A DNA stretch of 56,744 nt from Candidatus Saccharimonadaceae bacterium. Lineage in GTDB: Bacteria; Patescibacteriota; Saccharimonadia; Saccharimonadales; Saccharimonadaceae. Each line of letters starts with the position of its first letter. Positions within the stretch are counted from its first letter, which is position 1. The notes below the pieces were generated by a model. The model saw only the letters and a program-made list of their open reading frames with translations, had not been told where the DNA came from and made no database searches. Below are positions 12,971 to 16,117 of the stretch, in pieces. The stretch is taken from NCBI GenBank assembly GCA_039812985.1, contig JBDHUL010000001.1:1-56744 (forward strand), given 5' to 3'. The translations under genes were made by a program, and so were the position numbers.

Positions 12971-14989
12971 ATGATCGAGAGAATCCAGTGGACGCTTGAA
13001 GATGATGTCAATGACTACGTTAAACGACAGCTTGACGCTATGGGCAAACTCAAAAATAGAGATTACACAGTTGAATCGAGCATGTCTCAATATATGCGCG
13101 AAGCTCTCGCCGGCTCCGCGAAAACACAACAAAAAACAAACTTCGGTAAGCCAGACTTTCAAATAGAGCAGTTCGATGCACCTGTCATAATTGAGGATAA
13201 GCTACATCTTAGTAAGCTAGTATCGAAAAATAAAGAAGGTGTAAAAAAAGATGACTCATCAATCAGTAACTTTGCGGTCAACGGCGCACTACACTACGCC
13301 CGCAATATGATAGCTAGCGGCAAATACCATGAAGTTGTTGCTATTGGTATCGCTGGAGACAATGCCGACAATGCGAGGCAAGAAGTATATTACGTCTATG
13401 GGTCAGGCGATGACACATACAAGCACATGGGTCAATACTCAACGCTTGATTTCCTAGAAAATAGCTCCACATTTAACCATTTCTATGAACAAGCAACACT
13501 TAGCGATGAAGAAAAACATCAGATCCTTATTGACTCACGCGACAAACTGCAAAAATACGCCAAAGAGCTCAATAAGCTCATGCACAATCACGCCATCACA
13601 GCACCCGAGCGAGTCCTGTACGTTTCGGGTATGCTTCTTTCTATGCAGGACCTTAACGACGAAAACGGTACTACCATCAAAGCCGGATTGACACCTGACG
13701 ATCTTAACGGGATCGACCTTATTGGCTCGCGCGATGGTGACACTATCGTAAGCCACATTACAAATTATCTCCGACTTAAAAATATTCCTCAGTCCAAGCT
13801 AAATCTTATGCTTGCAAGCTTCAACAAAATCAAAGATGATCCAGACCGCGACCAGGTATCCGCTCCCAGAAAAGAGGTAGCCAGGTTCATTAACGGAAAC
13901 GCAAGCACTAACAAACAAATTTTCACCTTTATTTACGAAACCATCTACCAGTCGATAGGTAGTATGGCTGGACACATCGATATCATGGGTGAGATGTATA
14001 GCGAATTCCTCAAATACGCGCTTGGTGACGGCAAGGAGATCGGTATAGTTCTTACTCCACCCTATATCACTAAAATGATGAGCCAAATTCTAGGTGTGAA
14101 TCCCGATTCCCGTGTAATGGATCTTGCTACGGGCTCTGCGGGATTCTTAATTTCAGCAATGCAACTTATGATAGAACAGGTAGAGCATAAATATGGCAAA
14201 AACTCGACTCAAGCCGAACAAAAAATTAATGAAATTAAGAAAAATCAACTACTCGGTGTAGAGCTTGATGCTAACATGTTTACTCTTGCGGCCACCAACA
14301 TGATCTTGCGCGGCGATGGAAGTAGTAATATACAAAAGGGCTCAAGTTTCGACCGGCCACCAGAGCTATATGAAAACTTTAAAGCCGATAAATTACTACT
14401 CAATCCTCCGTTTAGCTTCGACGAAAACGGCATGCCTTTTATAGAATTTGGTCTAAGGCATATGCGAATTGGCGGACGGGCGGCAATCATCATTCAAGAT
14501 AGCGCAGGGAGTGGCAAGGCGGTTAAATCCAACCAAGCAATACTCCGCCAAAATCAACTTATCGCAAGTATCAAAATGCCAGTTGACCTGTTTGTACCAA
14601 TGGCAGGCGTACAAACCTCTATCTATGTAGTCGAACATACAGGCAAACCGCACGACCATGAAAAGCAAGTTCGCTTCATCGATTTTCGTAATGATGGCTA
14701 CAAACGGGCAAAACGCGGCATTAGTGAGGTGAACAGTCCAGTCGAGCGTTACCACGACATAGTACAGATTTTCAAGAACGGACGAGACGCCAAAGTACAC
14801 GAAGGCTTGTGGGATCTGGAAAAAGTTGTAGTGATGGACGAAATCAGTGACAGCGGCGCCGACTGGAATTTTGACCAACATTTCAAAATAGATACACGGC
14901 CAACCGAGGAGGATTTTAAGCAAGTAGTTGGTGATTATTTAGCATGGGAGGTTGCACAAATACTGAGGAGTACGCAATATGATGTATAA
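12971..14989 (+). CDS. Fused restriction endonuclease / N6-adenine DNA methyltransferase subunit (BcgI-A-like; gamma-class MTase)
   Basis: 672 aa. AdoMet motif I VMDLATGSAGFL and catalytic motif IV LLLNPPF. An N-terminal extension of about 350 aa carries a PD...(D/E)xK candidate (GKPDF-x12-IIEDK, nt about 13151-13201). Overlaps the downstream S gene by 11 nt. No HsdR-type helicase-nuclease gene is in the window. Confidence 0.85.
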   Translation: MIERIQWTLEDDVNDYVKRQLDAMGKLKNRDYTVESSMSQYMREALAGSAKTQQKTNFGKPDFQIEQFDAPVIIEDKLHLSKLVSKNKEGVKKDDSSISNFAVNGALHYARNMIASGKYHEVVAIGIAGDNADNARQEVYYVYGSGDDTYKHMGQYSTLDFLENSSTFNHFYEQATLSDEEKHQILIDSRDKLQKYAKELNKLMHNHAITAPERVLYVSGMLLSMQDLNDENGTTIKAGLTPDDLNGIDLIGSRDGDTIVSHITNYLRLKNIPQSKLNLMLASFNKIKDDPDRDQVSAPRKEVARFINGNASTNKQIFTFIYETIYQSIGSMAGHIDIMGEMYSEFLKYALGDGKEIGIVLTPPYITKMMSQILGVNPDSRVMDLATGSAGFLISAMQLMIEQVEHKYGKNSTQAEQKINEIKKNQLLGVELDANMFTLAATNMILRGDGSSNIQKGSSFDRPPELYENFKADKLLLNPPFSFDENGMPFIEFGLRHMRIGGRAAIIIQDSAGSGKAVKSNQAILRQNQLIASIKMPVDLFVPMAGVQTSIYVVEHTGKPHDHEKQVRFIDFRNDGYKRAKRGISEVNSPVERYHDIVQIFKNGRDAKVHEGLWDLEKVVVMDEISDSGADWNFDQHFKIDTRPTEEDFKQVVGDYLAWEVAQILRSTQYDV

Positions 14990-15620
14990 AACATTCCATC
15001 TACCATATCTATTTTTCGTCGAACGAGGCACGCGTCTGACTATTAGTAAACGTATTGACGGTAAGACACCTCTAGTAACAGCCGGCTTCGAAAATAACGG
15101 TGTTGCGGGGTATATCAGTAATCCTGAGCAAAAAGTATTTCCTGCAAATACATTGACGATTGATATGTTCGGCAATGTATTTTATAGAAATTATAAATTT
15201 TGTGCCGATGATAACATCCTAGTCCTCACATTCAAAGATACACTAAATCGTGGACGCGCATTATTTTTAGCTGCTACCATATCCGCTGGAGTGCGTGGAA
15301 AATTTTCTTACGGCAAGCAATACCGACAAGGAAGTTTTGAGACTACGTCCATAGACTTGCCCATTGATAAAAATGGCAAAATTGATTTTCCATATATGGA
15401 AAAACGCATTCGAGAACTCGAAGCGGAACGCATTCGAGAACTCGAAGCGGAACGCATTCGAGAACTCGAAGCGTATCTAAAAGTTACCGGCCTAAGCGAT
15501 ACGATACTTAGCCGCGAAGAACAAGCCGTTCTAGACGTATTCCGCGCGGAGCAAGCAAGCAAGCAAGCAAGCAAGCAAGCAAGCAAGGTCAGTTTAGCAG
15601 ATTCACAACATTTGCAATAG
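14979..15620 (+). CDS. RM specificity (HsdS/BcgI-B-like) subunit, N-terminal half: TRD1 plus coiled-coil, terminated after a (GCAA)9 frameshift tract
   Basis: 213 aa. GAGGAG RBS 9 nt upstream. TRD-like core (PLVTAGFENNGVAGYISN...TLTIDMFGNVFYRNYKF) followed by helical RIRELEAE repeats and ..LEAYLKVTGL. The frame ends 31 nt after the tetranucleotide tract. Confidence 0.8.
   Translation: MMYKTFHLPYLFFVERGTRLTISKRIDGKTPLVTAGFENNGVAGYISNPEQKVFPANTLTIDMFGNVFYRNYKFCADDNILVLTFKDTLNRGRALFLAATISAGVRGKFSYGKQYRQGSFETTSIDLPIDKNGKIDFPYMEKRIRELEAERIRELEAERIRELEAYLKVTGLSDTILSREEQAVLDVFRAEQASKQASKQASKVSLADSQHLQ
15405..15473 (+). repeat. 24-bp tandem repeat x2.9 (CGCATTCGAGAACTCGAAGCGGAA), in frame, encoding (RIRELEAE)n
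   Basis: Read directly. Units lie at 15405-15428, 15429-15452 and 15453-15473 and are identical over their shared length. Confidence 0.97.
15550..15587 (+). repeat. Tetranucleotide microsatellite (GCAA)9 inside the specificity gene
   Basis: Read directly. Nine perfect GCAA units occupy 15551-15586, flanked by partial units. Confidence 0.97.
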
Positions 15621-15697
15621 GCGATCTATTTTCGAATATTCAACAGGGTTCTAGACTCAAAAAATCAGACCAAGAGCAAGGAAGTCTTCCTTTTATT

Positions 15698-16117
15698 ATG
15701 TCGGGCACGACAAATACCGGTGTGGTTGGTTACGTGTCAAATAGTGTCACTGTCTACCCGTCCAATTCGATTACAGTGGACATCTTTGGCAATGCATTCT
15801 ATCGCAATTACAAATATGGCATGGGAGATGACACTGGAGCTCTGTGGTCAAATGAAAATAAGTACAATCAATATCACATGTTGTATCTTACGAGTGTGAT
15901 ATCAACATCTCTTCGAGGCAGGTTTGACTATAGCCACAAACTTCGCTCATCGAAAATAAAACCATTTAAAATACACCTGCCTACTACCGATGATGGAAGG
16001 CCTGACCTAAACTTTATGGAGTTATTCATTCGTGCACAACAAAAACTCGCAATTCAGAATATGAGTGCATGGCGGACAAAAAATATCGAGATCGCTAAGC
16101 AAGTCGTAGCGATCTAG
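15698..16117 (+). CDS. RM specificity subunit, C-terminal half (TRD2 plus distal helix), out of frame with the N-terminal half
   Basis: ORF-track ATG 15698 is internal. The same frame is open back through the GCAA tract and reads ..FTTFAIGDLFSNIQQGSRLKKSDQEQGSLPFIMSGTTNTGVVGYVSN..SITVDIFGNAFYRNYKY, a paralogue of TRD1 including the canonical IGDLF TRD start, but with no start codon or RBS of its own. Confidence 0.8.
   Translation: MSGTTNTGVVGYVSNSVTVYPSNSITVDIFGNAFYRNYKYGMGDDTGALWSNENKYNQYHMLYLTSVISTSLRGRFDYSHKLRSSKIKPFKIHLPTTDDGRPDLNFMELFIRAQQKLAIQNMSAWRTKNIEIAKQVVAI

Follow-up and report, generated by a model that had tools for sequence, protein, structure and literature searches.

BcgI, a Type IIB restriction-modification (RM) enzyme, is an A2B complex in which Glu53 forms part of a PD...EXK motif, and the E53A substitution abolishes cleavage (PMC3592470). 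In the BcgI-like system Hpy99XXII (JHP1364/JHP1365) of Helicobacter pylori, the specificity (S) gene contains a frameshift-prone poly-G tract (13 versus 14), and the corrected system methylates TCAN6TRG (PMC3936762). Here, we describe a locus related to these systems in a 56,744-nt stretch of DNA from a Candidatus Saccharimonadaceae bacterium (GenBank assembly GCA_039812985.1, contig JBDHUL010000001.1, positions 1 to 56,744 of the forward strand), referred to as the window. At positions 12971..16117, a gene for a predicted fusion of nuclease and methyltransferase (A) overlaps an S gene that is interrupted by a tetranucleotide repeat. We consider it likely that the pair is a BcgI-like (Type IIB) system on a horizontally acquired, A+T-richer islet, with an S gene that is phase-variable by its slippery tract.

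Repeats within specificity genes have been surveyed in Type I systems, where about 7.9% of the hsdS genes in REBASE carry a repeat, always between the target recognition domains (TRDs), and where truncation of the NgoAV HsdS changes the specificity (PMC7383803). The NgoAV motifs are GACN6TGC, GACN7TGC and GCAN8TGC, of which the palindromic GCAN8TGC comes from the truncated HsdS (PMC6789123). In Type I systems of the NgoAV/EcoR124 type, the spacer length depends on how many 4-aa repeats the central helix contains, and a GCAA[n] tract has been reported in an hsdS gene of P. aeruginosa (PMC6789123, PMC7383803). The survey of Type I hsdS repeats makes no mention of Type IIB S genes (PMC7383803), and our literature search found no paper on repeat-mediated phase variation in Saccharibacteria. 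The Type IIB enzyme BsaXI has an (RM)2S architecture, solved by cryo-electron microscopy (8w0p, 8w2p, 8w2q; PMC11997821).

The locus in the window resembles BcgI in having two overlapping genes without HsdR, an A subunit of about 640-670 aa in which an N-terminal PD...ExK motif (E53 in BcgI, E75 in the window) is followed by a gamma-class N6-adenine methyltransferase, and an HsdS-like subunit, encoded separately, that has two TRDs in about 340-380 aa. It differs from BcgI in that the S gene is interrupted by the tetranucleotide repeat and has a 24-bp repeat in the region for the central helix. The link to BcgI is indirect and was drawn from the PADLOC IIG and Specificity_II profiles and an annotated phage protein. 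The PADLOC models of 637 and 341 positions, which correspond to BcgI A and B in length, gave E-values of 2e-66 and 1.6e-18. An E. coli prophage protein with the note "restriction enzyme BcgI alpha chain-like protein" aligned over 89% of the length of A with 33% identity (E 2e-85), and the RM protein of an RM and S pair located between the amidase and integrase genes of an S. aureus phage aligned over 98% of A with 28% identity (E about 1e-58).

With Hpy99XXII and HP1471/HP1472 the locus shares an RM fusion and a separate S gene whose full translation depends on the tract length; unlike the homopolymer there, the repeat in the window has a tetranucleotide unit, (GCAA)9, and the host is a Saccharibacteria episymbiont. 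The Campylobacter relatives of the A family are 61-64% identical to the A subunit. As in NgoAV-type hsdS genes, a non-triplet repeat between the TRDs picks a full-length or a truncated S, and amino-acid repeats are found in the central helix (LEAT/TAEL there, RIRELEAE in the window); those systems are however three-subunit, ATP-dependent Type I enzymes with HsdR, whereas the nuclease in the window is fused to the methyltransferase. The resemblance to BsaXI lies in the (RM)2S architecture and in the alignment of the full-length A model with the BsaXI RM subunit over 622-677 columns (Foldseek E 1.7e-13 to 3e-12), although the latter is 916 aa long, the template-modelling (TM) scores were low (0.27-0.37) and no repeat-mediated switching has been described for BsaXI.

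The A gene (12971..14989, plus strand) is an open reading frame (ORF) of 672 aa, identified by profile, Pfam, alignment and structure-model evidence. The order of domains in its product is a PD...ExK nuclease, a helical HsdM-like domain, a gamma-class N6-adenine methyltransferase and a C-terminal helix. The nuclease domain spans aa 1-172 (12971..13486) and includes D62 (13154-13156), E75 (13193-13195) and K77 (13199-13201) within the segment KPDF...VIIEDK at aa 60-77. Motif searches and alignments placed the S-adenosylmethionine-binding motif I, DLATGSAGFL, at aa 384-393 (14120..14149), and the catalytic motif IV, NPPF, is located at aa 478-481 (14402..14413). In an alignment of 20 A-subunit homologues with identities down to 54%, P61-D62-F63, E75, K77 and N478-P-P-F481 were invariant (20/20), and DLATGSAGFL was conserved throughout with the sole exception of a Thr-to-Ala change at T387. 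The Pfam domain N6_Mtase matched aa 336-484 (E 2e-31), and the Pfam scan gave no match in the first 335 residues. A first-pass annotation of the DNA had pointed to the gamma-class motifs of the 672-aa protein and to KPDF...VIIEDK as a PD-(D/E)xK candidate, and both are borne out by these results.

Profile searches, which the same annotation had proposed as a check, assigned the whole protein to the fused enzymes. The PADLOC-DB model PDLC03616, "REase_MTase_IIG", covered aa 8-667 with an E-value of 5e-216, and two more IIG models matched (PDLC03602, E 2e-66, and another, E 8e-40), while the best MTase_I model was weaker (E 1.5e-38) and restricted to aa 304-638. The N-terminal 335 residues alone matched the same IIG models with E-values of 1e-75, 1.5e-21 and 4e-7. 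In a search against the sequences of the PDB, only the methyltransferase core matched HsdM (3khk, 2e-11), and the match to the BsaXI RM subunit was weak and confined to the core (E 5.6e-4). Residue 336 of the A subunit paired with HsdM residues 120-200 in these alignments, which suggests that aa 170-335 correspond to the helical N-domain that is also present in HsdM. From these offsets, the extra sequence relative to HsdM amounts to about 170 aa (aa 1-170) and not to the approximately 350 aa first claimed.

Other assignments were tried and rejected. MAD2 of the MADS system scored 71.6 bits against an NCBIfam cut-off of 720 and PglX of BREX 18 bits against a cut-off of 900, in both cases over the methyltransferase core only. 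The single-chain Type IIG/IIL enzymes (MmeI, BpuSI, DrdV) do not fit since S is a separate gene, and the MmeI_Mtase model scored 17 bits against a cut-off of 27.

The AlphaFold2 model of the full-length A subunit was of moderate confidence (predicted local distance difference test, pLDDT, 76), whereas residues 1-172 had a pLDDT of 88 and an alpha-beta-beta-beta-alpha-beta core, with D62 placed just before the strand 63-65 and E75 and K77 inside the adjacent strand 72-78. In Foldseek searches with the full-length model, HsdM proteins aligned over about 470 columns and the nuclease-methyltransferase fusions BsaXI RM, DrdV and BpuSI over 620-765 columns.

A profile of the nuclease domain retrieved 436 clusters among 1.84 billion representative proteins and no match among the PDB sequences. 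In almost all of the best 150 of the 436 clusters the domain was located at or very near the N-terminus; the near-complete proteins in these 150 were mostly 625-700 aa or 830-1190 aa in size, and many others were short fragments. Homologues of the A subunit number more than 2800, are mostly 60-65% identical and are spread across many phyla, including Streptococcus, Campylobacter, Haemophilus, Capnocytophaga, Listeria, Flavobacterium, Cloacimonadota, Peribacteria and Saccharibacteria. Those with names in public annotation are usually called "HsdM family" or "N-6 DNA methylase", and also "type I restriction enzyme M protein". The A protein was also recovered from seven Logan contigs, each from a separate sequencing run, with one residue different (99.85% identity).

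The hexamer TATAAT at 12960-12965 is only 5 nt upstream of the start codon of A, and no Shine-Dalgarno sequence is present; judging from this arrangement, the A-S transcript may be leaderless. A scan for consensus promoters and terminators gave no hits above the shuffled expectation, and it missed the region upstream of A, leaving the TATAAT unreported.

The S gene starts with the ATG at 14979 and overlaps the A gene, which ends with the TAA at 14987-14989, by 11 nt; a ribosome-binding site, GAGGAG (14965..14970, plus strand), is located in the 3' end of the A gene, 8 nt upstream of the ATG. This overlap and ribosome-binding site had been noted in the first-pass annotation, which further described S as an HsdS-like gene with two TRDs. 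As sequenced, S is not one intact ORF, and a frameshift separates TRD1 from TRD2 at a perfect (AGCA)9.5 tract, equal to nine GCAA units (15550..15587, plus strand), identified with Tandem Repeats Finder at the TRD1/TRD2 junction, still within the first ORF and toward its 3' end. The 5' frame (14979..15620, plus strand) encodes 213 aa and matches Methylase_S (E 8e-15) and Specificity_II (E 5.5e-23). Its product consists of TRD1, a central coiled-coil helix, a linker, (QASK)n from the repeat and an out-of-frame tail of 10 codons that ends at the TAG at 15618-15620. The 3' half, with TRD2 and the C-terminal helix (15588..16117, plus strand), is out of frame with the start; its frame contains no stop between about 15548 and the one at 16115-16117, and it matches Methylase_S (E 9e-13) and Specificity_II (E 1.6e-18). 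Both halves scored higher against the PADLOC Specificity_II than against the Specificity_I models, and a search against the sequences of solved structures gave no informative match for either half.

We computed the reading frames that result from changes in tract length. With nine units, as sequenced, translation stops 10 codons past the tract and yields TRD1 and the central helix only. Addition of one unit gives a protein of 380 aa and loss of two units one of 376 aa, both with the order TRD1, helix, linker, TRD2 and helix, whereas all other lengths computed give TRD1-only proteins of 204-217 aa. Given these outcomes, slipped-strand switching is the most likely mode of variation. The out-of-frame half with TRD2 and the helix has no stop in 176 codons, and a comparison with the related locus L088 gave a ratio of nonsynonymous to synonymous substitution frequencies (dN/dS) of 0.17 at a dS of 0.56, indicating that this half was translated during the divergence of these strains. 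It is still under purifying selection.

About 80 nt upstream of the AGCA tract, a perfect 24-bp repeat in three tandem copies (15403..15473, plus strand; Tandem Repeats Finder) accounts for the sequence (RIRELEAE)x3 within the central helix of the S product. The only Logan contig that crosses this repeat, from the same strain in another sample (L001, 8433-8479), has two copies, which may be a true polymorphism or an assembly collapse. Units of the RxRELEAE type are present in two copies in L089-L091, L093 and L094, and in three copies in L088, as in the window. By analogy with the Type I systems, one may speculate that the number of helix repeats alters the distance between the half-sites.

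The TRDs themselves have moved. L088 and the window have TRD2 in common (84% identity) but not TRD1 (40%), L089 and L090 have TRD1 in common (100%) but not TRD2 (39%), and TRD1 of L088 and TRD2 of L090 share 76% identity. By these identities, TRDs are exchanged both between alleles and between positions.

To quantify the recurrence of junction repeats, we scored a 240-bp segment at the TRD1/TRD2 junction and used flank segments of equal size as the expectation. Non-triplet repeats were present at the junction in 19 of 75 species-representative genomes, as compared to 4.9% expected from the flanks (binomial P 3e-9). The units were of at least seven types, including G, GA, AGAC, AGAA, AGGC and AGAGT. 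Just outside the 240-bp segment, where S. danieliae has a (CAGAG)18 tract, L084 adds an eighth. Among the 20 repeat-bearing loci, S was classed as full length and in frame in nine and as cut off at the repeat in 11, with L029 cut by the contig end and L010 ambiguous. The A gene was an ordinary ORF of 668-700 aa in 17 of the 20; in L010, L019 and L073 it read through into S in the same frame (868-888 aa). L085 lacked an A ORF of at least 600 aa, owing to an early stop in the A/S1 region.

Closely related Saccharibacteria loci differ in tract length. L089, L091 and L090 encode identical A proteins and have tracts of (GA)12, (GA)15 and (GA)6, respectively, and L093 and L094, also with identical A proteins, have (GA)22 versus (GA)25. 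L088, which occupies the same chromosomal site as the islet and has an A protein of 92% identity, contains at least 14 (AAGC) units beside a scaffold gap versus nine units in the window.

In Campylobacter relatives (L078, 5001-8243; L081, 5001-8195; L019, 5001-7646; L073, 198-2837), A continues in frame into S, and the product is either a complete RM-S fusion of 1081-1097 aa or A with TRD1, ending at an (AG)10 or G10 tract. In the streptococcal loci L023, L045, L046 and L060, (AGAGT)3 is followed by AGAGGAG..., and S consists of two ORFs with an overlap of about 10 nt, while in L028, L032 and L044 it is followed by ATTTGGG and S is a single ORF. From its sequence, the split form resembles a stop codon combined with a ribosome-binding site that would serve a second, separate half-S gene. 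Since the streptococcal (AGAGT)3 is possibly a fixed arrangement rather than a variable tract, it was not counted as strong evidence. A GAGCA repeat of S. suis, considered as a further hsdS case in the A-S family, was discarded, as the paper assigns that repeat to a Type III mod gene.

Taken together, the features that define a Type IIB system with a phase-variable S gene are found as follows. Nuclease and methyltransferase are located in one polypeptide, as seen from the profiles, the N6_Mtase match and the invariant D62, E75, K77 and NPPF. A separate S gene with two TRDs is adjacent, but the repeat number has to change before both TRDs are encoded as one protein. Neither HsdR nor a superfamily 2 (SF2) translocase is encoded among the large ORFs of the window, and none is conserved beside 80 related loci. 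The repeat between the TRDs is of non-triplet type and exceeds the threshold of at least three tetranucleotide units used in the survey of hsdS genes (PMC7383803).

Under the BcgI-like reading, the A subunit would combine a single nuclease centre of the PD...ExK type with a single gamma-class N6-adenine methyltransferase centre, with DNA recognition presumably supplied by the separate S (B) subunit. Slipped-strand mispairing at (GCAA)n would most likely toggle between a full-length and a half S. The full-length S would read an asymmetric bipartite site, while the half S could homodimerise to read a palindromic bipartite site, as does the truncated NgoAV HsdS, or the system could be off for both cutting and methylation.

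Several points weigh against this reading. A half S is not known to act with a BcgI-type A subunit, and a truncated Type I HsdS of H. pylori did not methylate the expected palindrome (PMC3936762). With a repaired 380-aa S as the query, no in-frame version of the S allele was found among 5.8 billion proteins, the best full-length match being 53% identical. The isolated nuclease domain gave only Foldseek matches below significance (E 0.096 or worse, TM 0.2-0.37), the top ones mostly to PD-(D/E)xK enzymes (RecU/PrfA, HincII, Hjc), so that structure prediction, another of the checks proposed at first, agrees in the core of aa 1-172 and falls short in the matches to known folds. The absence of HsdR covers 56.7 kb of the genome only, and an hsdR gene may be located elsewhere. 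Finally, repeat counts within the strain are unreadable. We identified the same-strain Logan loci (L001-L007 and L097-L105) from the A protein P0001, with its one different residue, and from the downstream gene for ribosomal protein L25, and 15 of the 16 end at the 24-bp repeat or the AGCA tract; the 16th, L105, ends earlier, in the ABC-transporter gene. Because an assembler with k=31 breaks at periodic tracts of at least 35 nt, public short-read assemblies systematically lose the S junction.

The same observations could be taken as signs of decay, with the frameshift in S as an ordinary inactivating mutation that happened to fall within the repeat, in a system that neither cuts nor methylates. 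S is out of frame as sequenced, the search of 5.8 billion proteins found no in-frame copy of the allele, S genes are split in several relatives too, and BcgI-like systems of H. pylori have been reported to be inactive in laboratory strains (PMC3936762). However, the AGCA tract is perfect over 9.5 units without interruptions, the A gene is intact and differs by a single residue in the seven Logan contigs, and the downstream half of S has kept its 176 open codons at a dN/dS of 0.17. Repeats with different units moreover occur repeatedly at this junction in different phyla (P 3e-9), and the occurrence of both in-frame and out-of-frame states is the pattern of a contingency locus rather than of decay. 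We therefore regard decay as improbable, although it is the most serious of the alternatives.

A second alternative is that A is an unusually long HsdM of a classical Type I system, in which a remote hsdR gene would supply restriction. Relatives are annotated in public databases as "HsdM family" or "type I restriction enzyme M protein", the methyltransferase core is closest to HsdM in both sequence and fold, and the genome is seen only within the 56.7-kb window. Yet no HsdR or SF2 helicase-nuclease was found among the 15 ORFs of at least 450 aa in the window, in agreement with the first-pass annotation, which had seen none on either side. Ten of the 15 correspond to a solute-binding protein, UvrC, exonuclease I, AlaRS, MetRS, a UvrD/PcrA helicase, pyruvate kinase, PPDK and two without a Pfam match. 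Nor was HsdR conserved in the 5-kb flanks of the 80 related loci: a large neighbouring ORF with a DExH motif was present at three loci only, one of which (L019) also had a Walker-A motif, and none was conserved. The M-like protein instead has its own conserved nuclease domain, an extra 170 aa with an invariant PD...ExK motif, and among the best 150 clusters this domain is almost always placed at or very near the N-terminus, in near-complete proteins mostly of RM size (625-700 aa) or of fused size (830-1190 aa). Since the full-length profiles are furthermore those of Type IIG/IIB enzymes, a classical Type I system of HsdR, HsdM and HsdS was rejected as very unlikely, and the organisation initially proposed for the locus, BcgI-type Type IIB, is upheld.

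A third alternative, to which we give a very low probability, is a system in which the nuclease is silent and the relevant output is an altered methylation pattern that changes gene expression (a phasevarion). In its favour, repeat-controlled S and mod genes do drive phasevarions (PMC7383803), and the BcgI-like NgoAVIII has no detectable role in methylation or restriction in gonococci (PMC6789123). Against it, the nuclease residues are invariant across phyla, which points to selection for cleavage, and the islet is mobile and adjoins other defence genes in relatives (such as GmrSD in L093 and L094); a role in defence would also be compatible with one in gene regulation.

Returning to the phase-variable, BcgI-like system, its horizontal acquisition, as first suggested from the base composition, is supported by three lines of evidence. 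The G+C content of the islet is 0.429, as compared to 0.503 in the rest of the window, and is the lowest of 268 sliding windows of 3147 bp; the A+T-richness noted at first is thus real, while the hand counts on single lines, 32% and 43% G+C, exaggerated the drop. The A proteins are 60-65% identical across many phyla. Lastly, the sites differ among close relatives, in which the A-S pair is found beside genes for SelR and CTP synthase, beside MurB, or beside a GmrSD gene and a serine recombinase gene. The closest genome locus for A, with 81% identity, is that of Candidatus Saccharibacteria UBA1932. In L093 and L094 (1822-3924 and 7910-9706), the A-S pair is situated between a gene of the GmrSD family (Type IV restriction) and a gene for a large serine recombinase, an arrangement that suggests a small mobile defence island.

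Other features were noted in the surroundings. A perfect 13-bp tandem repeat in two copies (CCATATAGTTCAT, 16250-16275) is located in the spacer between the S gene and an ABC-transporter gene, and the gene for ribosomal protein L25 is found 2.3 kb downstream, with its best named relatives, at 72% and 66% identity, in Candidatus Saccharibacteria. Two large ORFs on the minus strand, at 29797-31437 (546 aa) and 34698-36581 (627 aa), had no Pfam match at E 1e-5. In L103 (859-2776; sample SRR32936298, same strain), an IS1595-family transposase gene and a Replic_Relax gene adjoin uvrA, while exonuclease I and its neighbouring genes occupy the equivalent position by uvrA in the other samples. The difference, some 7-8 kb away from the islet, represents a rearrangement at the strain level.

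A broader scenario, which we put forward tentatively and consider rather less than even in likelihood, is that the family has gained hinge repeats, of at least eight unit types, repeatedly and independently in many phyla. A restriction enzyme, and not a methyltransferase alone, would then flip between an asymmetric and a palindromic target, with the 8-aa repeat as a second dial for the spacer length. Methyltransferases of the BcgI type prefer hemimethylated DNA. Switching would for this reason expose an unprotected chromosome, which implies an as yet unknown way to survive the switch, even in a Saccharibacteria episymbiont with a reduced genome.

The locus alone is of an ordinary and well-recognised RM kind that current defence-system profiles identify at once, and phase variation of S in a BcgI-like system has already been described for Hpy99XXII in H. 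pylori. The recurrence of hinge repeats across the family is a modest extension of this. Public labels such as "HsdM" or "Type I M protein" hide a self-contained restriction enzyme in a large family, and the S gene is a probable contingency locus, with slippery repeats at the same hinge in roughly one in four of the species genomes surveyed. Saccharibacteria are ultrasmall episymbionts with reduced genomes and few defence genes. In such hosts, switching of the restriction specificity could affect how susceptible they are to phages and how successfully they are genetically transformed.

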